Source: a virus (Duplodnaviria; Heunggongvirae; Uroviricota; Caudoviricetes). From it: a stretch of 6,926 nt of DNA. The stretch is taken from IMG/VR virus record IMGVR_UViG_2690316188_000015. One strand, given 5' to 3'. Made by a program: the position numbers and the translations under genes. Below the pieces are notes generated by a model. The model had not been told where the DNA came from and searched no databases. It saw only the letters and a program-made list of their open reading frames with translations. This document shows positions 1 to 6,926 of this stretch, piece by piece (the stretch's first letter is position 1; every line of letters begins with the position of its first letter).

Positions 1-536
1 AATGCCGAACCACCACGACAGCATGGTACCAGCAGGATCCCCGCGTTATTCGGGATATACGGGAGCAGTTTTTTGGCAATATGTAAGCCCTGGCCGACAC
101 AGCCGTACTGCCCTTTGCTCAGGTCTGCCTTCGGATGATTCAGCGTACTCATATCCTGCACATCATGCAGGCAGTGGTCGGCCGGAATAATATCGTTATA
201 TCTGCATGCAGCCCCACCCGGCGTAACTGTACTGCGGCGCGCCAGCTGTTTAATGCGCGGATCCGGAGCATCGTATGAATCCGGCAGCGGAAGCCCTTCA
301 CCGTAAGCCATGGCATTGGACTGCCCGGCCAGTACGATGACGTAGTACCAATCCGGCTCAGTTGCACCACTGACCACCACATCACCTTCTGCTGTAATCG
401 CCTGCATCAGGGTATAAGGGGTTATGGCCACCGGACTACCAAACGGCTGCCAGCCCTCTTTCAGTTTGTGTGTCAGCTTTTCCGCAAGGTCTGACGGCGA
501 CGCCGCCCTGACAACATCATAATGTTTAAATGTCAT
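1..536 (-). CDS. NanS-p-like protein: N-terminal DUF1737-like region plus SGNH/sialate O-acetylesterase domain; partial, 3' end beyond window
   Basis: ATG at 536-534 preceded by GGAGG (minus strand). Frame is open for 178 codons to the window edge. Translation starts MTFKHYDVVRAASPSDLAEKL and contains the GQSNA motif typical of SGNH esterases. Not in the ORF track because it has no stop in the window. Confidence 0.75.
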   Translation of the reverse strand, partial: MTFKHYDVVRAASPSDLAEKLTHKLKEGWQPFGSPVAITPYTLMQAITAEGDVVVSGATEPDWYYVIVLAGQSNAMAYGEGLPLPDSYDAPDPRIKQLARRSTVTPGGAACRYNDIIPADHCLHDVQDMSTLNHPKADLSKGQYGCVGQGLHIAKKLLPYIPNNAGILLVPCCRGGSA

Positions 537-720
537 TATTCCTCCCGGCCGGGATAGTGTATTAAATCAGATATGGAGTGGGCTGTAGTCCGGAAGCCTG
601 AATGACACACGGGGACTACAGCCCAAGAAATGAAAAAAGGCCACGCAGTTGCGCAGCCTGATAAACCCTGGTTAAAATCCACACGATAACAACACAACAA
701 TATCAGTATCTCATGCTATT

Positions 721-746
721 GCCCGAACCCATTCGGGCATTTTTTA
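721..746 (+). terminator. Rho-independent terminator, plus-strand orientation
   Basis: Hairpin GCCCGAA-CCCA-TTCGGGC (721-738) followed by A then TTTTTT (740-745) on the plus strand. Confidence 0.5.
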
Positions 747-750
747 CCCA

Positions 751-778
751 TAAAAAATGCCCCTCCGGAGAGGGGCAT
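751..778 (-). terminator. Rho-independent terminator, minus-strand orientation, downstream of the TerB-like gene
   Basis: 9-bp stem ATGCCCCTC / GAGGGGCAT with CGGA loop (757-778), followed on the minus strand by TTTTTT. Confidence 0.6.
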
Positions 779-943
779 GTTTGCATGCACATTCTTTTTC
801 TTGCATGGTGCCGGGTGCCTCCCGGTGAATTCAGTATCAGCACCTGAATCCGCGATTATCCCATATACCTGGTTGCTGATCGCCCCTCCGCACAGGGGGA
901 TTCACCATGCAGAAGTGTTTTTAATAAACAGCAAACAAAAAAA

Positions 944-1111
944 TCAAGCATTATGCAGGCTGTTTCTTTTTATCACCGGCCACAGCAATACCACAATGCC
1001 GCAGACCAGCACCCCATCCGCCAGCACCGACATGATTCTGCTGGTGAGATCCACCATCACCACCAGAAACAGCAGGAGTGCAGCCACAGCCAGGCGCAGT
1101 TTTACCGTCAC
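944..1111 (-). CDS. Candidate small hydrophobic membrane peptide (55 aa from GTG), possibly translationally coupled to the upstream TerB-like gene
   Basis: GTG start overlaps the TerB-like stop (GTGA overlap). Translation VTVKLRLAVAALLLFLVVMVDLTSRIMSVLADGVLVCGIVVLLWPVIKRNSLHNA has two hydrophobic segments. Below the ORF-track size cutoff. GC-rich region with several open frames, so it may be spurious. Confidence 0.25.
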   Translation of the reverse strand: MTVKLRLAVAALLLFLVVMVDLTSRIMSVLADGVLVCGIVVLLWPVIKRNSLHNA

Positions 1112-1539
1112 AGGTGATTCTCCAGACGAAGACCCAGAACACCGGCAATCTCTTCCAGCACCTTGCGCTCTTCCGGCTCAATTTCGCCGTCTGCCTCCGC
1201 AATGGCCACCGCCACATCCAGCACATCTTCCGCTTCACGCGTATCGTGTTTCACATCCTCAATCTCGCGTAACGCGGCACGACGACCAATTTTAAAATTG
1301 GTATCCAGCTGACCGATAATGGTTGCGCTAATCGCATTAATTTCCGAGGTAAACGCAGACAACGCAGGCTGATTACGTAAGACCTGTTCGATCTTCGCTT
1401 TCTCGGATGCCTCGCATTCACCATCTGCATAGGCCACCAGGTATGCAGCGTTAATCACCGCCTGTGCCAGATCGCGTTTCTCAAACTTTTTAATTTCCGC
1501 TGCCGCTCTGCGGGTTTTCTTTTTGAAGATTCCAAACAT
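1108..1539 (-). CDS. TerB-like (tellurite-resistance TerB family) protein, 143 aa
   Basis: ATG at 1539-1537 with AGGAAC Shine-Dalgarno 7-8 nt upstream. Protein MFGIFKKK...ADGECEASEKAKIEQVL...EADGEIEPEERKVLEEIAGVLGL has the paired ADG/DG plus acidic-helix organisation of TerB. The ORF-track N-terminal extension (start 1611) lacks an RBS. Confidence 0.75.
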   Translation of the reverse strand: MFGIFKKKTRRAAAEIKKFEKRDLAQAVINAAYLVAYADGECEASEKAKIEQVLRNQPALSAFTSEINAISATIIGQLDTNFKIGRRAALREIEDVKHDTREAEDVLDVAVAIAEADGEIEPEERKVLEEIAGVLGLRLENHL

Positions 1540-1671
1540 CGTGACGTTCCTTTGGGTGGGTGAGCCAACGCCCGGGAGCGATCTGCCCACAGAGAAAGTC
1601 ACACTGACCACTCCGTAAGCTCACCCCCGAAAGGCTCTGTGGTTGATATGCGCCGGGCGTGGCGCAGATAC

Positions 1672-1695
1672 AAAAAAGGCCCGCCGAAGCGAGCC
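1672..1695 (-). terminator. Rho-independent terminator just downstream of the tRNA cluster
   Basis: Minus strand reads GGCUCGC-UUCG-GCGGGCC followed by UUUUUU: 7-bp stem with one G-U pair and a UUCG tetraloop, about 14 nt past the tRNA-Arg 3' end. Confidence 0.6.
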
Positions 1696-1708
1696 TGGAA
1701 AATAAGTG

Positions 1709-1785
1709 TGGCGCGTTGTAGTGGAGTCTAACCACTGACCGATTGCTTAGAAGGCAATTGCTCTGTCCGACTGAGCTAACAACGC
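1709..1785 (-). tRNA. argO: tRNA-Arg (anticodon UCU), 77 nt with encoded CCA
   Basis: Manual fold: acceptor GCGTTGT/ACAACGC, D-stem GCTC/GAGC, anticodon stem ATTGC/GCAAT with loop CTTCTAA, CCA encoded. The T-loop TTAGACT is atypical. The symbol is assigned by position in the phage tRNA trio, not by sequence match. Confidence 0.7.
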
Positions 1786-1798
1786 ATGATGCTGATAA

Positions 1799-1875
1799 TG
1801 GACCGCCATCGGGGACTTGAACCCCGCGCAGCCAGCTTCGAAGGCTGGCGCTCTGTCCCGATGAGCTAATAGCGG
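1799..1875 (-). tRNA. argN: tRNA-Arg (anticodon UCG), 77 nt with encoded CCA
   Basis: Acceptor CCGCTAT/ATGGCGG (one G-U pair), D-stem GCTC/GAGC, anticodon stem CCAGC/GCTGG with loop CTTCGAA, T-arm CGGGG-TTCAAGT-CCCCG, CCA encoded. Symbol assigned by position only. Confidence 0.75.
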
Positions 1876-1884
1876 TATGTAATA

Positions 1885-1960
1885 TGGTGGCCCTTGCTGG
1901 ATTTGAACCAGCGACCTGGCGATTATGAGTCGCTCGCTCTCACCACTGAGCTAAAGGGCC
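1885..1960 (-). tRNA. ileZ: tRNA with CAU anticodon, ileX/ileZ-like (tRNA-Ile2 reading AUA after lysidine modification; formally a Met anticodon), 76 nt
   Basis: Sequence GGCCCTTTAGCTCAGTGGTGAGAGCGAGCGACTCATAATCGCCAGGTCGCTGGTTCAAATCCAGCAAGGGCCACCA closely resembles E. coli tRNA-Ile2 as recalled; canonical cloverleaf with T-loop TTCAAAT. Confidence 0.8.
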
Positions 1961-1988
1961 GAGCCAAAAAATAATAATCAGATGAAAA

Positions 1989-2702
1989 TCAATAATCAAG
2001 CCCTTGCCTGGATACATATCTGTCTGGCGGGAAGCCATAATAGCGGTGAAATACAGAAATAAAGTAGGACCTGCTTGAATAACCGCATTTTTCTGCTATA
2101 GCCTGTCCATATCCATGCCGGGAACATAACATATTTACAGCAACACGCATCCGCTCTTCCAGCAACAAGCGACTGAACATGCCCCCTTCATTTTTCAGTT
2201 TTGTCTTTAACAAACTCTCACTCATATGCAACTGTAGAGCAATCGCACCAAGCGTCCAGCTTGCTGATATATCTGTCTGAATTATCGCCCTGACTTTGGC
2301 ACTTATGCTGGATAAACATCCACTTAAAAACAATGACATCCGTTCATCTGTTTCAAACAGAGACAGGCAGGCCATCATAAGAAACATATCCGTGGCCTCT
2401 CCGGAAAATCCCTGGCTGGTAATTAAAGCCGCAGCCAACGCAGGATTGTTGGGTTCCAGCAACAGGTAAAGCGGAATGTCAGTCAGACGAGTCCTCGTCA
2501 GCTTATGCTGACTTTCCAGATATTGACTTACGACGGATTCGCTTATATCGACAATTTTAACTTTGCCATAATGCATAAGGAAAAGCTCCCTGATGCATTT
2601 GGTGGCCAGAACAACTGAGCCTGGCTTAAGTGACAACGTATCCTTTTCAAGAAAAATATTAATTGGGGAGCAAACCATGATAACTGAACAGACAACAGCC
2701 AT
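1989..2702 (-). CDS. AraC/XylS-family transcriptional regulator (AppY/YdeO/GadX-like subfamily), 237 aa, intact copy
   Basis: C-terminal region has both AraC-type helix-turn-helix motifs (WTLGAIALQLHMSESLLKTKLKNEGG... and AIAEKCGYSSRSYFISVFHRYYGFPP). N-terminus MAVVCSV resembles AppY-type regulators. Low GC. Confidence 0.85.
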   Translation of the reverse strand: MAVVCSVIMVCSPINIFLEKDTLSLKPGSVVLATKCIRELFLMHYGKVKIVDISESVVSQYLESQHKLTRTRLTDIPLYLLLEPNNPALAAALITSQGFSGEATDMFLMMACLSLFETDERMSLFLSGCLSSISAKVRAIIQTDISASWTLGAIALQLHMSESLLKTKLKNEGGMFSRLLLEERMRVAVNMLCSRHGYGQAIAEKCGYSSRSYFISVFHRYYGFPPDRYVSRQGLDY

Positions 2703-2737
2703 TATAATTTTACTTTCATTAGCAATTGGTTAGCTCA

Positions 2738-2768
2738 ATTATAGCCCCAAAAGGTAAATTATCATCAA
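2738..2768 (-). promoter_or_regulatory. Possible sigma70 promoter for the AraC-family gene: -35 TTGATG, 19-bp spacer, -10 TATAAT
   Basis: Perfect TATAAT on the minus strand about 36 nt upstream of the ATG. The -35 is weak and the spacer is long. An identical copy lies at 4129-4159 upstream of the truncated paralog. Confidence 0.3.
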
Positions 2769-2821
2769 CACATAAGCAAAGGACTGACAGGTGTCGCCCC
2801 CCCACCAGCCGCCCATTCACC

Positions 2822-2850
2822 ACAAATAAAAAGCCTTCAGGACTGAAGGC
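2822..2850 (-). terminator. Rho-independent terminator overlapping the stop codon of the 65-aa ORF
   Basis: Minus strand reads GCCTTCA-GTCC-TGAAGGC followed by TTTTTATTT. Confidence 0.6.
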
Positions 2851-3034
2851 GTCTGTAACAACCGCACTGATAGTCTGCCAGACCCGCCATAACAAGCTGG
2901 GTCAGTATTAACTGGCAGCGTTCGCGTGAAAGGTAAGTATTCTGCGCAATCTCCCCGACTGTCGCCGGTTCGGTAACGCTTAATTCATCAAACACAACTC
3001 TGGCGGTTTCTGTCATATCCTGCTGTTTCAGCAT
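2837..3034 (-). CDS. Small hypothetical protein (65 aa, or 59 aa from the second ATG), possible helix-turn-helix DNA-binding protein; copy A
   Basis: ORF with AAGGG about 9 nt upstream of the ATG. The only difference from copy B in this ORF is a synonymous change (GTT vs GTC Val at codon 20). Segment TVGEIAQNTYLSRERCQLILTQL is HTH-like. Function unknown. Confidence 0.5.
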   Translation of the reverse strand: MLKQQDMTETARVVFDELSVTEPATVGEIAQNTYLSRERCQLILTQLVMAGLADYQCGCYRRLQS

Positions 3035-3158
3035 GTCTTTTTACCCTTTCCGGTTAACGTGACATACCAATAACTCTTGTCTAAAAAGCCAGCAAGATAA
3101 AAAGCCAGTATTCACGACCACCAGCGTGTTTACTGTACTGCACCAGGTTTACAGGTAC

Positions 3159-3180
3159 AAAAAAACCGCTCAGCGGCGGG
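3159..3180 (-). terminator. Weak candidate terminator in the tail of repeat copy A
   Basis: Minus strand has a short CCGC/GCGG stem followed by TTTTTTT. The homologous site in copy B has a 5-bp stem. Confidence 0.35.
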
Positions 3181-3312
3181 TTTAAGTTGTGTGGCGAAGT
3201 AACCACTCTTAACACACTAATAGCATTTTTGTTATAACACAAGTAGCTCATTCAGTATTTTTAGAATCTTGACTTTCTTAAGCACGGAGAACTCTGAATA
3301 CCAAACATAAAA

Positions 3313-3546
3313 TCAATTATCTTCCAGGCCGGATGCTATCAACGAAAGCCTCTCAAAAAACGCTGTAGCAGCCTTGTCCAAAGTTGAATAAGTACTGTAT
3401 TCTCCGTGTTCGGGACCAACCACTACCCATGGTCGTCTTTTTGGGATTCGGGACTTCTCAGAAATCACTGTTCCAGATATACCAATATCAATTGTTACAC
3501 CTGTTATTATTTTCTCTTCATCTCTTTCCCTGAACTCAATTGCCAT
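3313..3546 (-). CDS. Hypothetical 77-aa ORF in the unique segment between the two repeat copies; possibly a gene remnant
   Basis: ORF-track ORF starting 19 bp inside the unique segment. No Shine-Dalgarno (A-rich upstream). No family recognised. Confidence 0.25.
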   Translation of the reverse strand: MAIEFRERDEEKIITGVTIDIGISGTVISEKSRIPKRRPWVVVGPEHGEYSTYSTLDKAATAFFERLSLIASGLEDN

Positions 3547-4093
3547 AAATGCCGTTTTTTTTTATGAACATGCCCCCTTCATTTTTCAGTTTTGTCTTTA
3601 ACAAACTCTCACTCATATGCAACTGTAGAGCAATCGCACCAAGCGTCCAGCTTGCTGATATATCTGTCTGAATTATCGCCCTGACTTTGGCACTTATGCT
3701 GGATAAACATCCACTTAAAAACAATGACATCCGTTCATCTGTTTCAAACAGAGACAGGCAGGCCATCATAAGAAACATATCCGTGGCCTCTCCGGAAAAT
3801 CCCTGGCTGGTAATTAAAGCCGCAGCCAACGCAGGATTGTTGGGTTCCAGCAACAGGTAAAGCGGAATGTCAGTCAGACGAGTCCTCGTCAGCTTATGCT
3901 GACTTTCCAGATATTGACTTACGACGGATTCGCTTATATCGACAATTTTAACTTTGCCATAATGCATAAGGAAAAGCTCCCTGATGCATTTGGTGGCCAG
4001 AACAACTGAGCCTGGCTTAAGTGACAACGTATCCTTTTCAAGAAAAATATTAATTGGGGAGCAAACCATGATAACTGAACAGACAACAGCCAT
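3536..4093 (-). pseudogene. Truncated paralog of the AraC-family regulator: N-terminal domain plus first HTH, residues 1-176 identical to copy A, then 9 unrelated codons and a stop
   Basis: Identical to copy A through ...KLKNEGGMF, then diverges exactly at the repeat boundary (3565) into IKKNGIYGN-stop. The second HTH is missing. Confidence 0.7.
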
Positions 4094-4212
4094 TATAATT
4101 TTACTTTCATTAGCAATTGGTTAGCTCAATTATAGCCCCAAAAGGTAAATTATCATCAACACATAAGCAAAGGACTGACAGGTGTCGCCCCCCCACCAGC
4201 CGCCCATTCACC

Positions 4213-4241
4213 ACAAATAAAAAGCCTTCAGGACTGAAGGC
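4213..4241 (-). terminator. Rho-independent terminator after the 65-aa ORF, copy B
   Basis: Identical to the terminator at 2822-2850. Confidence 0.6.
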
Positions 4242-4425
4242 GTCTGTAACAACCGCACTGATAGTCTGCCAGACCCGCCATAACAAGCTGGGTCAGTATT
4301 AACTGGCAGCGTTCGCGTGAAAGGTAAGTATTCTGCGCAATCTCCCCGACTGTCGCCGGTTCGGTGACGCTTAATTCATCAAACACAACTCTGGCGGTTT
4401 CTGTCATATCCTGCTGTTTCAGCAT
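4228..4425 (-). CDS. Small hypothetical protein (65 aa), copy B; protein identical to copy A
   Basis: Same ORF as 2837-3034 within the duplicated core. Confidence 0.5.
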   Translation of the reverse strand: MLKQQDMTETARVVFDELSVTEPATVGEIAQNTYLSRERCQLILTQLVMAGLADYQCGCYRRLQS

Positions 4426-4548
4426 GTCTTTTTACCCTTTCCGGTTAACGTGACACACCAATAACTCTTGCCGAAAAAGCCAGCAAGCTGAAAGACCTGT
4501 ATTAATAACTACCAGCACATTTAACGCACTGCGCTACTTTGCGGGCAC

Positions 4549-4571
4549 AAAAAACCCGCTCAGAGGCGGGG
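4549..4571 (-). terminator. Candidate rho-independent terminator between the CPBP gene and repeat copy B
   Basis: Minus strand reads CCCGC-CTCTGA-GCGGG followed by TTTTTTG, about 150 nt downstream of the CPBP stop. Confidence 0.5.
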
Positions 4572-4711
4572 TCAAGCTATGCGGCGAAATAACCACTCTT
4601 AACAGCATACCTGATTTTTTACGTACGTAAATGCTTTGCCGTGCATATTTTTCATGCAAATGTCACGTCCTGCTATTTTTCAGTCTTATAAATTTAAAAC
4701 CATAGAAAAAA

Positions 4712-5530
4712 TCAATTATGTTTTAAAAATGGATAGGTAAAGAATAACAAGTGACACAGATTCAAACCAAAATGGAAAAGGGTGGCAACCCACAAACGCC
4801 CACTCCACATCCATGACAATCCATACACAACACCAGATAACGTGGCAAATAATACAAGTAAAGCACCACCTGAATAGTGATAAAAACCAAACAACAAAGC
4901 CGCCACAATTAATGCAACCAATGGAGACGTTACTTCTGATAGCCGTGATTGAATATACCCTCTAAATAATGATTCCTCTGCCAGAGACACAAAAAACAAA
5001 TTAGCCAATATAAACTCTGGCAACCACTCAGGAAAATGAATCTCTGGCTTTAATCCACCAAAAAAAACAGCCAAAAACAGGATAAGAGGAACAGAGAGCG
5101 ACAGAGCCCCCCACTTCCACAAAGACACTTCTGATTTTACTTCTTTTTTAAACAAAGAAGATGTACACAGGACTAACAAAAATGGCACCAGCGCTTTATC
5201 AAAATTAAAATACATTGTATAGGGAGTACTTTGAGGGCCAACAGTAACAGAATTTAGCACTACAGGATTGTGAAACCCTGGCCATAGATGGAAAGATAAT
5301 GCTATGGCTGATAAAACTATGCCAACTTCATATATAGATTTAGCCCAGGCGTTATATTTCCAGTTGAACTTCAAAATAATAAAAAAAACGATTGTAGCAA
5401 CAAAAAATAACACCGACCAATCAATAATATCATTAAGCACAGCCAGGACAACAGACACCGTCAACAATGAAAAAGCCACTACCTTATGCCAACTGAGAGT
5501 TGACAGTGACAGTACTAACACAATCCACAT
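4712..5530 (-). CDS. CPBP-family (CAAX protease / Abi-domain, PF02517-like) intramembrane metalloprotease, about 272 aa
   Basis: ATG at 5530-5528 with AGGAG and a 5-nt spacer (the ORF-track GTG at 5536 is rejected). Polytopic hydrophobic protein with all three CPBP motifs: EESLFR (EExxxR), FGFYH (FxxxH) and HFGLN (HxxxN). Low GC, roughly 38% by eye. Confidence 0.8.
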   Translation of the reverse strand: MWIVLVLSLSTLSWHKVVAFSLLTVSVVLAVLNDIIDWSVLFFVATIVFFIILKFNWKYNAWAKSIYEVGIVLSAIALSFHLWPGFHNPVVLNSVTVGPQSTPYTMYFNFDKALVPFLLVLCTSSLFKKEVKSEVSLWKWGALSLSVPLILFLAVFFGGLKPEIHFPEWLPEFILANLFFVSLAEESLFRGYIQSRLSEVTSPLVALIVAALLFGFYHYSGGALLVLFATLSGVVYGLSWMWSGRLWVATLFHFGLNLCHLLFFTYPFLKHN

Positions 5531-5681
5531 AAGCACTCCTTTTATTTAATGATGAAGATTGATTATCAATATTTTCAATTCACCAGGCAACATTTTATCT
5601 ACCTTCCACAATACATGACCATCAAAAAATAAACATGTTAATTATAAACACAGAAAACATAACCCTCATCACTATATATCC
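5531..5681 (-). promoter_or_regulatory. AT-rich region immediately downstream of Q; expected location of the Q-dependent late promoter and Q-utilisation site
   Basis: Positional inference from lambdoid phage organisation. Several -10-like hexamers are present (TATAAT, TAAAAT) but no element could be assigned confidently. Confidence 0.3.
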
Positions 5682-6053
5682 CTACCGCATATCCATATCT
5701 AACCGGACATTCAGAGCCATAAGCATTCCTTCAATAATACCTTCCGCTTTATAAAGCCTTTTACCAATAAGCCCATCAGAACATCTATGCTTACGTGCAA
5801 GAGCCATAAATGTCATTCCACCTACGTAATAATCCACCAACAAATCGTGCAAATACTGATTATTCTTGTTTAATCGTGCCATACAACCACAAATTATCAT
5901 GGCGTCATCATCAGAACACTGAGGACGTGATTTCACTTTAGTCGGGATTAATCCTTTAAAACCAGCAGCTATCGAGGGCCATGTTACATCTTCATGATTA
6001 TTTGCTGCCCATGCCCCCCATCGCTCAAGAACCATCTGGATATCACGCGCCAT
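5682..6053 (-). CDS. Q: Late-gene antiterminator Q (QuuD/phage-82-type), 123 aa from the ATG
   Basis: Protein [25 protein letters not shown]...[14 protein letters not shown]... closely resembles E. coli prophage QuuD-type Q as recalled. GAGGTGG Shine-Dalgarno before the ATG at 6053; start overlaps the end of rusA. Confidence 0.85.
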
Positions 6054-6414
6054 CGTTACCACCTCTGATTTCGTAAATCTTCACGCCCAGCCGTCCACCT
6101 GGCACAGGCTGACCGCGCACAATATTGATTTCATCAAACTGCTCGTCATCAATGAGCACTTCCGCATGCGTCAGCGCATCCAGCGGTGCTTTCAGAATGT
6201 TGTCCAGGTCACGGCGGCGCTTATCCGGTGGTTCTGCAATAATTTTTATTGCCAGCCGTCCGGACAGGCTTAATTTCAGCCGCTGCTGGCGAACAATAAG
6301 CGCCACAGCCCGGCGATAACGCTCACCGGCTTTTGATACAAAATATGTGCTGCCACGACGTCGCCAGTAGGTGTTCACCGTCGGCGGGTAAGGCAAAACA
6401 AACTCTATACGCAT
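6043..6414 (-). CDS. rusA: RusA-family Holliday-junction resolvase, 123 aa
   Basis: AAGAGG Shine-Dalgarno 6 nt before the ATG at 6414. Motifs [19 protein letters not shown] and GGRLGV match the RusA family (compare DLP12 RusA ...PDRRRRDLDNLQKAAFDAL...). Position immediately upstream of Q is typical. Confidence 0.85.
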
Positions 6415-6426
6415 CAGTAACCTCTT

Positions 6427-6926
6427 TTACCCGAGCACGCCGGTTGCAAAAGCGTGATCAAGAAAACGAAAAATTAAATCAACCTGGGAACCATGCTTTT
6501 CTTCGAACGCCAGCGGATCCGCATGAAGCTCGTTGTGATGCTCCCGACACAGCGGTAGCGTGAAAATATCGTGGGATTTTGTTCCCATTCCACCCTGACC
6601 ATGACCAATCAGATGATGAGGATCGTCCGCTGGCTTACCACAACACGCACACGGCTGTGTCTTTACCCAGCGTGTGTATTTCTCATTTACCCAGCGGCGA
6701 CGTTTAGGTCGTTTCATGAAGGATTCCGGAGACTCCGGATCAACGGCAATGCTGACCACCGTCTTTTCCTGTGGTGGGTTCTGTTGCTGGTGGGTGTGAG
6801 GCGGTAGCGCAATATTTTTTGTGCGCTGCTTCAGTATGCTGGTGGCGGTCTGTTCTCCCGGTATGATGTCGCTTTCACGGTATACGGAGCGGATTTTTTC
6901 CGCCGGTAATCCCAGAGAACGACGCG
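6427..6926 (-). CDS. DUF968-like protein with HNH-like Cys/His cluster; partial, 5' end beyond window
   Basis: The reading frame is open from the window edge (6926) to the stop at 6427. The ORF-track GTG at 6759 is only the first in-window start codon. Motif CACCGKPADDPHHLIGHG...CREHHNELH is present. Confidence 0.65.
   Translation of the reverse strand, partial: RRSLGLPAEKIRSVYRESDIIPGEQTATSILKQRTKNIALPPHTHQQQNPPQEKTVVSIAVDPESPESFMKRPKRRRWVNEKYTRWVKTQPCACCGKPADDPHHLIGHGQGGMGTKSHDIFTLPLCREHHNELHADPLAFEEKHGSQVDLIFRFLDHAFATGVLG

Follow-up and report, generated by a model that had tools for sequence, protein, structure and literature searches.

In the Hendrix-type model, lambdoid phages evolve in modules, by illegitimate and by homeologous recombination. 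Bacterial tandem duplications with non-homologous join points are expected to be lost through RecA-dependent recombination between their copies. The locus described here touches both phenomena, and its closest described relatives are the prophage regions encoding the AraC-like regulators psrA and psrB (and patE) of EHEC O157:H7. In the Sakai prophage Sp4 (ECs_1082-ECs_1088), the genes follow the order DUF968-RusA-Q-CAAX protease-small ORF-AraC regulator-ileZ-argN-argO-nanS-p. PsrA and PsrB are 90% identical to each other, and they activate gadE/hdeA and repress type III secretion (PMC10877973).

We analysed a stretch of 6,926 nt, hereafter the window, covering the late-regulatory region of a lambdoid prophage of E. 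coli, with its genes on the minus strand. A cassette made up of hyp65 and a psr-type regulator gene is present in it one and a half times. Our data point, with about an even chance of being right, to a hybrid of two lambdoid prophage lineages (A-type and B-type) generated by one illegitimate, out-of-register crossover.

Organization of the window and its psr copies

The features of the window are as follows.

1-536, minus strand: 5' part of a nanS-p-type SASA carbohydrate esterase gene (A-type arm; coordinates from the RefSeq annotation of the 100%-identical locus L002)
944-1111: DUF3927 gene (A-type arm; L002 annotation)
1108-1539, minus strand: TerB-family gene (A-type arm; Pfam TerB, E=6.8e-16; L002 annotation)
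1709-1960, minus strand: tRNA cluster ileZ (CAT), argN (TCG), argO (TCT), by ARAGORN and Rfam, named as in Sakai Sp4
1989-2702, minus strand: complete psr-type AraC-family regulator gene, 237 aa, copy 1 (Pfam HTH_AraC and HTH_18; ECs_1087 match)
2174-3064, minus strand: repeat core, copy 1 (one mismatch to 3565-4455)
2837-3034, minus strand: hyp65, gene of a small TrmB-like winged-helix protein, copy 1 (weak Pfam TrmB, E=0.003; phrog_331)
3065-3214, minus strand: tail A, 3' flank of the WYL gene (96-100% identical in 10 of 10 WYL-bearing loci; 78% to tail B)
3215-3563, minus strand: 3' remnant of a WYL-domain gene, with a 77-aa ORF at 3313-3546 (100% identical to L002)
3564, no strand: joint, a lone A unlike either parent (three-way alignment)
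3536-4093, minus strand: truncated psr' fusion ORF, 185 aa (from the ORF list; Psr residues 1-176 plus 9 foreign residues)
3565-4455, minus strand: repeat core, copy 2 (one mismatch to copy 1)
4228-4425, minus strand: hyp65, copy 2 (translation identical to copy 1)
4456-4604, minus strand: tail B, 3' flank of the CPBP gene, with a terminator-like hairpin at 4555-4570 (99-100% identical in 3 of 3 CPBP-bearing loci)
4712-5530, minus strand: CPBP/CAAX intramembrane protease gene (B-type arm; Pfam Rce1-like, E=1.4e-19; L004 annotation; Sakai ECs_1085)
5682-6053, minus strand: antiterminator Q, B-type allele (Pfam Phage_antitermQ, E=4.9e-52)
6043-6926, minus strand: RusA gene (6043-6414) and 3' part of the DUF968 gene (6427-6926) (B-type arm; Pfam RusA; L004 annotation)

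Copy 1 of the core holds psr codons 1-176, hyp65 (labelled "TrmB family transcriptional regulator" in the source records) and 30 nt upstream of hyp65. A promoter scan placed a promoter-like site for psr inside it, at 2738-2765, and Chi sites lie in both cores, at 2802-2809 in copy 1 and at 4193 in copy 2. Tail A carries another Chi site (3118-3125) and a terminator-like hairpin (3165-3177 followed by a U-run); for structured RNA in the tails, there was no Rfam match at E<=1, only terminator-like hairpins. The WYL remnant terminates in a T9 homopolymer (3555-3563), and an intact WYL gene of 205 aa occurs in E. coli S88. The B-type Q of the window and its A-type counterpart share only 61% identity.

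The product of psr copy 1 has a double helix-turn-helix (HTH_AraC in two stretches, E=2.4e-13; HTH_18 at residues 155-230) and is identical to Sakai Sp4 ECs_1087 (= psrA) at 175 of 195 aa (90%). Its gene has the location of the Psr/PatE group, in a lambdoid prophage late region adjoining ileZ-argN-argO. Copy 2 is without the last 61 codons and the second helix-turn-helix is gone; in Pfam, Psr' gave only the first HTH_AraC stretch, at 23.3 bits against a cut-off of 26.6 bits, and it is not an intact member of the family.

Two parental lineages and one repeat

At an offset of 1391, window positions 2174-3064 match 3565-4455 over 891 nt with one mismatch (2975 A / 4366 G), far beyond what chance would give. 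The left edge of the repeat is sharp at 2174/3565, with only a chance-level match over 2150-2173. Beyond the core, 3065-3214 and 4456-4604 are still homologous, with 32 substitutions and one 1-nt indel (78% identity), and homology ends at about 4604. This comparison bore out the preliminary description of the locus as two head-to-tail copies with a single core difference and a sharp contrast between core (1 of 891 sites differing) and tail (33 of 150). The tails are slightly more similar than the 70-75% given there, and homology stops short of the right end of 4616 that it had proposed. The topology is that of a tandem duplication with a unit of 1391 nt, in which 3565 corresponds to 2174, that is, unit end is followed by unit start. 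The copies do not share one parental segment: copy 1 has A-type sequence over its whole length, and from 4366 rightward copy 2 and everything beyond it are B-type and identical to single-copy prophages elsewhere.

Window 1-3563 has 100.000% identity with the single-copy A-type prophage of E. coli Z1323HEC0108, and window 3630-6926 has 100% identity with the single-copy B-type prophage of strain 2013C-3342; over 3565-6926, the window is 98.3% identical to Sakai Sp4. The A-type order is Q(A)-WYL-hyp65-psr-tRNAs-TerB-nanS-p and that of the Sakai Sp4-like B-type is DUF968-RusA-Q(B)-CPBP-hyp65-psr-tRNAs. In both lineages the hyp65 and psr cassette lies between the antiterminator Q and ileZ-argN-argO, and the upstream modules flanking this conserved cassette vary (WYL, CPBP and at least two others). 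The two arms share orientation and colinear order, Q(B) is intact, and at 2975/4366 each copy carries the allele of its own lineage. These alignments identify both parental lineages and the breakpoints. The best matches of the two arms come from strains of different countries. A-type and B-type prophages do occur together in one genome (GCA_037957245.1, loci L022 and L023), and therefore had the opportunity to recombine.

Copy 2 has no exact B-type match in the databases, a point that counts against a single crossover; its best match, 2013C-3342, differs at 8 sites, all within 3573-3629. The A-type alleles at these sites are also natural in the B-type prophage RM13514.

The contrast between core and tail is found outside the window as well. 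When the single-copy prophages of Z1323HEC0108 (A-type) and 2013C-3342 (B-type) are compared with each other, 9 of 891 core sites and 33 of 150 tail sites differ, and cores of single-copy A-type and B-type prophages from different strains are in general about 99-100% identical. These alignments show that single-copy prophages already have the contrast. The cores would owe their near-identity to inheritance, since the cassette moves between prophages with hardly any change. Within the window the cores differ at 1 site, against 9 between the window and the single-copy 2013C-3342, of which 8 are clustered in 57 nt, and over 826 of the 891 core nt there is no excess of similarity within the locus. 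Tail A goes with the WYL gene in 10 of 10 independent loci (96-100% identical) and tail B with the CPBP gene in 3 of 3 (99-100%); on this association, the divergent tails are the 3' flanks of two different upstream genes.

The joint at 3564 and its possible origins

A-type homology stops at 3563 and psr homology starts at 3565, limits respected by every database alignment. Homology to each parent is lost abruptly at a single point without extended homology, as in an illegitimate joint, with 0 nt of microhomology and one unmatched base; position 3564 is the only base of the 6,926 unmatched by any relative. Among the 100%-identical psr matches listed, alignments begin at 3565 and none has a natural A allele at 3564. 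The joint, which contains neither Ns nor a k-mer overlap, interrupts two genes, WYL in the A-type arm (at the end of the T9 run) and psr in the B-type arm (after codon 176). Neither breakpoint is a natural module boundary, as A-type relatives run on through WYL and B-type relatives through psr.

The joint was found in 0 of 5,426 complete E. coli genomes (641-nt and 201-nt queries), in no phage record and in no plasmid record. IMG/VR, GTDB species representatives and JGI metagenomes gave no match to the exact 40-mer across the joint (CCATAAATGCCGTTTTTTTTTATGAACATGCCCCCTTCAT) or to a gapped pattern (T7-T9 plus filler). The Psr' fusion protein, queried with seven alternative start codons, is absent from a collection of 15 billion proteins. 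The joint is therefore without independent support.

Draft contigs often end near the WYL homopolymer tract, giving partial proteins of 69-103 aa, and the joint sits at this very homopolymer, which also counts against a crossover. Among the 15 members listed of the AraC (psr) protein cluster, contig ends truncate 10, leaving partial proteins of which none stops at psr codon 176; the clustering of contig ends near the homopolymer, looked at as a signature of contig concatenation, has no counterpart among these listed psr proteins. An RNA-mediated (poly-A) origin, in view of psr' being followed by A9 on the coding strand, was rejected, as the A-run is native to the WYL gene.

We infer a single event that produced the joint, and with it the existence of the molecule. 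A single non-homologous (illegitimate) crossover or template switch would have united two related phage genomes 1391 bp out of register, with the A-type break inside the WYL gene at the end of T9 and the B-type break inside psr after codon 176. The product would retain the lambdoid gene order and gain a partial tandem duplication: promoter-proximal hyp65 and truncated psr', then the WYL remnant, then complete hyp65 and psr. Shared orientation, colinearity and an intact Q(B) are needed by a viable recombinant and unexpected in a random chimera. These prophages often contain gene remnants annotated as "partial in the middle of a contig", which means that genuine illegitimate joints are frequent here. 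Against this origin, the joint is blunt, with a single unmatched base and without microhomology, which is not the commonest signature of illegitimate recombination in E. coli.

The preliminary description attributed the contrast between core and tail to gene conversion or recent recombination homogenizing the core. An old in-situ duplication that diverged everywhere and was then re-homogenized in its core could produce the observed 1 of 891 against 33 of 150 differing sites, and a short conversion tract could explain why copy 2 equals copy 1 at the 8 sites of 3573-3629, unlike its closest B-type relative. We consider such a history very improbable. The copies belong to two prophage lineages; each tail has a 100% match in single-copy prophages from other strains and is continuous with the flanking gene of that lineage, so the divergence did not occur in situ. 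Unlinked single-copy prophages show the same degree of core conservation, so local gene conversion is unnecessary, and local conversion or crossover could account for at most the 8 clustered sites. The comparison of one-copy and two-copy relatives proposed earlier gave single-copy states in all 20 of the other distinct genomic contexts examined (cassette or adjacent WYL remnant, through hyp65 and the 77-aa ORF), none with two copies or a truncated psr. Two steps might instead be involved, a rather unlikely alternative: in-situ tandem duplication of 2174-3564 in an A-type prophage by illegitimate sister-strand exchange, then a homologous crossover in the core of copy 2, between 3630 and 4365, with a 2013C-3342-like B-type phage that replaced everything rightward. 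Existing sequences would then account for every base, as copy 2 has A-type alleles at the 8 sites of 3573-3629 and is 100% 2013C-3342-like from 3630, including the G at 4366. The joint from unit end to unit start is that of a tandem duplication, Chi sites lie within the core at 2802 and 4193, and homologous or homeologous exchange is well documented among lambdoid phages (PMC2327257, PMC3945230). However, two rare events are needed, the second before the unstable duplication is lost, and RM13514 makes a B-type parent with the 3573-3629 alleles plausible, so that the extra step is unnecessary.

An artefact of assembly, scaffolding or concatenation is unlikely but has to be taken seriously. The A-type and B-type prophages would then occupy different loci, or different strains in a mixed sample, and their contigs would have been linked end to end. 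The lone A at 3564 would mark a gap or serve as a placeholder; no second instance of the joint turned up in any of the collections searched, the sole unmatched base sits exactly at it, the left arm stops exactly at the tract around which many draft contigs break, and the arms find their best matches in different countries. Yet the joint is without Ns or k-mer overlap, the listed partial psr proteins do not end at codon 176, and an arbitrary join would be unlikely to show, by coincidence, the shared orientation and colinear order with a 1.4-kb offset. A de Bruijn assembly containing both prophages would presumably collapse the 891-nt core rather than keep two full copies and the lineage-specific SNP. 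We see the single out-of-register crossover as an ordinary by-product of phage mosaicism, an assembly error being less likely.

It is a long shot that the joint is a fresh, unpurged product of illegitimate recombination between co-resident lambdoid phages and that Psr' is also expressed and dominant-negative on Psr-dependent control of acid resistance and type III secretion. The proposal is built on Psr' consisting of the N-terminal domain and half a DNA-binding domain, with its own promoter-like site. If true, the joint would capture directly the raw step that phage mosaicism is postulated to involve.

Comparison with known systems

If real, the single crossover would be a tidy example of lambdoid prophages swapping Q/late-region modules, with an in-gene, unselected joint of the kind usually removed by selection, and it would add a truncated copy of a gene that regulates virulence and acid resistance. 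No concept is changed by it. In practice, near-identical cores with divergent flanks in prophage regions should be read with caution, as they usually represent shared mobile cassettes and not local gene conversion.

RecA-dependent deletion acts on direct repeats, and 891-nt direct repeats should be recombinogenic. To this extent the preliminary description holds; its homogenized in-situ duplication is not supported, given the two lineages. Such recombination would soon collapse the locus to a single-copy mosaic.

The gene order of the B-type arm is identical to that of Sakai Sp4. Unlike in Sp4, the promoter-proximal psr copy of the window breaks off after codon 176 and runs on into 9 foreign codons. 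Like the mosaic joints described in lambdoid phages, the window passes abruptly from one lineage to another, each matched at about 100% identity, keeps its gene order, and has a conserved cassette flanked by alternative modules (PMC2327257, PMC3945230, PMC9836094). Established mosaic boundaries are usually found at gene borders, whereas the joint of the window falls within two genes and creates a duplication, which is what one would expect from a fresh product that selection has yet to filter. With bacterial tandem duplications the window shares the head-to-tail repeat and one new join point that lacks extended homology, but its copies are not sisters, since the second continues into the tail and flanking genes of another lineage.

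Gene content and repeat structure

The window covers late-regulatory sequence of a lambdoid E. coli prophage, in which all genes lie on the minus strand. Its features, in the direction of transcription, are:

6427-6926, minus: DUF968 gene, 3' part
6043-6414, minus: RusA gene
5682-6053, minus: antiterminator Q
4712-5530, minus: CPBP/CAAX protease gene
4456-4604: tail B with a terminator-like hairpin, between the CPBP/CAAX protease gene and hyp65
4228-4425, minus: hyp65 (small winged-helix, TrmB-like protein), copy 2
3536-4093, minus: truncated AraC-type ORF
3564: joint
3215-3563, minus: 3' remnant of a WYL-domain gene, with a 77-aa ORF
3065-3214: tail A with a terminator-like hairpin, between the WYL remnant and hyp65
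2837-3034, minus: hyp65, copy 1
1989-2702, minus: complete AraC-type gene (psr)
1709-1960, minus: tRNAs ileZ, argN and argO
Beyond the tRNAs: TerB, DUF3927, the sRNAs STnc100 and AgvB, start of nanS-p
746-939, minus: STnc100 (142.7 bits, Rfam gathering-level)
684-745, plus: AgvB, anti-GcvB sRNA (96.5 bits, Rfam gathering-level)
Chi sites (GCTGGTGG): 2802-2809, 3118-3125 and 4193-4200, minus; 6786-6793 and 6838-6845, plus

AgvB and STnc100 lie back to back, with the DUF3927/TerB genes on one side and nanS-p on the other. The tRNA at 1885-1960 (minus) was called Met (CAT) by ARAGORN, is ileZ/tRNA-Ile in the RefSeq annotation of most relatives but tRNA-Met in that of S88, and is presumably of the lysidine-modified Ile2 type.

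Self-alignment of the window bore out the preliminary description of two near-identical cores 1391 nt apart: 2174-3064 and 3565-4455 differ at a single position (2975 A / 4366 G), and the match ends abruptly on the left at 2174/3565. On the other side it continues as a tail (3065-3214 versus 4456-4604) that differs by 32 substitutions and one indel. The proposed contrast between core (1/891) and tail holds, although tail identity is 78%, a little above the 70-75% first given, and homology ends near 4604 rather than 4616. All 20 other genomic contexts of the neighbouring genes that were compared are single-copy.

Two parental lineages

The two arms of the window correspond to different single-copy prophages. 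Positions 1-3563 are 100.000% identical to a prophage of E. coli Z1323HEC0108 (A-type), with the order Q(A)-WYL-hyp65-psr-tRNAs-TerB-nanS-p. Positions 3565-6926 match a prophage of 2013C-3342 (B-type; DUF968-RusA-Q(B)-CPBP-hyp65-psr-tRNAs) without interruption at 99.8%. The Q proteins of the two types are only 61% identical. All eight mismatches to 2013C-3342 fall within 3573-3629, so that 3630-6926 is identical to it; there the window has the copy 1 alleles, which O145:H28 RM13514 also has in its B-type prophage.

We compared the window segment by segment with 15 loci. Tail A was 96-100% identical in 10/10 loci with the WYL 3' part and tail B 99-100% identical in 3/3 loci with CPBP, identity to the other type being ~78% for each. 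The core was 100% identical among psr-bearing A-type loci (a single hyp65 mismatch in one) and, by segment, 98.5-100% identical in 2013C-3342. Tails thus follow the upstream gene while the core is common to both types, and the same contrast appears between two single-copy prophages of different strains (9/891 core versus 33/150 tail differences). Each tail is just the 3' flank, terminator hairpin included, of one of two alternative upstream genes. Since the cassette is shared, the contrast pre-exists elsewhere and each copy has its lineage's allele at the sole differing core site, homogenisation after duplication is unnecessary; a short conversion or crossover tract could account for, at most, the eight sites at 3573-3629.

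In both tails (3140-3215 and 4531-4605, minus) a 5' hairpin precedes a terminator-like hairpin and U-run, and where the copies differ the pairs are kept as G-U. Folding of the copy 2 tail is unusually good (z = -3.0), and an Rfam search of the tail folds gave zero matches at E<=1.

The joint and its origin

A-type homology runs to 3563, where a T9 run within the WYL gene ends, and homology to psr begins at 3565, following codon 176. Between them lies an A (3564) that fits neither parent; alignment with both parents revealed no microhomology, and natural module boundaries coincide with neither breakpoint. The truncated ORF encodes Psr residues 1-176 (N-terminal domain and first helix-turn-helix) followed by nine foreign residues. 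None of 5,426 complete E. coli genomes crosses the joint, alignments among the matches listed starting exactly at 3565; nor does any phage or plasmid record. Exact and gapped pattern searches of IMG/VR, the GTDB species representatives and JGI metagenomes yielded zero matches to it, and a collection of 15 billion proteins lacks the fusion protein under all seven start choices tried.

In S88 the A-type WYL-domain gene is whole (205 aa), but many assemblies have it split; the 77-aa ORF downstream is present on 169 contigs. Homopolymers around CCATAAATGCCG (window 3555-3563) vary among 11 loci (T7/T8/T9, then CGTTTCCCG, T4/T5, A7/A8), for which phase variation, a decaying gene or a tract prone to sequencing error are possible causes.

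The most economical account, to which we give about an even chance, is that a single illegitimate crossover or template switch linked an A-type and a B-type phage genome. These would have been aligned via the common cassette, yet joined 1391 nt out of register. The product would keep the lambdoid gene order, an intact Q(B) and the intergenic region downstream of it (5531-5681), where the cognate late promoter is assumed to lie, and would be 1.39 kb longer; for these reasons the recombinant could be viable. Opportunity for such exchange exists in GCA_037957245.1, where both prophage types lie on contig JARWBT010000002.1 (A-type 99.96% to 803-3562; B-type 98.6% to 3565-6926); the psr cassettes of these two are only ~93% identical and so are not homogenised there. 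Prophages of these types commonly hold gene remnants left by similar events. Direct repeats of 891 nt are expected to recombine readily, leaving a clean single-copy mosaic, and the apparent rarity of the two-copy structure fits such collapse. The window holds five Chi sites in 6.9 kb versus 0.25 expected from shuffles. Each core copy has one, and another is present in tail A but not in tail B; these sites may stimulate RecBCD-dependent cassette exchange between prophages.

An old duplication whose core was later evened out by gene conversion, as first proposed, is highly improbable, being contradicted by the tail-gene linkage and core/tail contrast of unlinked single-copy relatives. We regard as unlikely a tandem duplication within an A-type genome followed by a homologous crossover, somewhere from 3630 to 4365, with a phage like that of 2013C-3342; this accounts for every base with known sequences but requires two events. 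That the joint is an artefact of assembly, scaffolding or concatenation is a minority possibility that deserves some weight: the joint is unique, the lone unmatched base falls exactly on it, and the left arm stops at a homopolymer that is the break point of many draft contigs. Counting against an artefact, the joint shows neither Ns nor k-mer overlap, both arms carry a full core with lineage-specific SNPs, their orientation and order are colinear, and 0/10 partial Psr proteins listed end at codon 176.

The psr cassette and known prophages

At least four different modules precede the hyp65-psr cassette. Besides those with WYL and CPBP, they include two (in L019, L020 and L025) made up of, respectively, a 126/148-aa ORF on the opposite strand and an NA37-domain gene plus a 404-aa ORF; in L005-L012 and L014 an N6/N4 methyltransferase gene, not psr, follows hyp65-like genes. 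In other genomes psr is broken by IS3-family transposase insertions (L019 4333-6382; H128-H130, O145 RM9872 group), so the cassette has been inactivated in several independent ways.

The AraC-type protein shares 175/195 residues (90%) with Sakai ECs_1087, named psrA of prophage Sp4 in a 2026 paper, and the gene order of Sp4 is exactly that of the window's right arm. Both PsrA and PsrB are activators of gadE and hdeA and repressors of type III secretion (PMC10877973). The observation of a two-copy module is confirmed and its earlier interpretation partly supported; the kind of event, a mosaic joint or partial duplication in a lambdoid prophage carrying the known psr cassette, is already known, and this instance of it is new.
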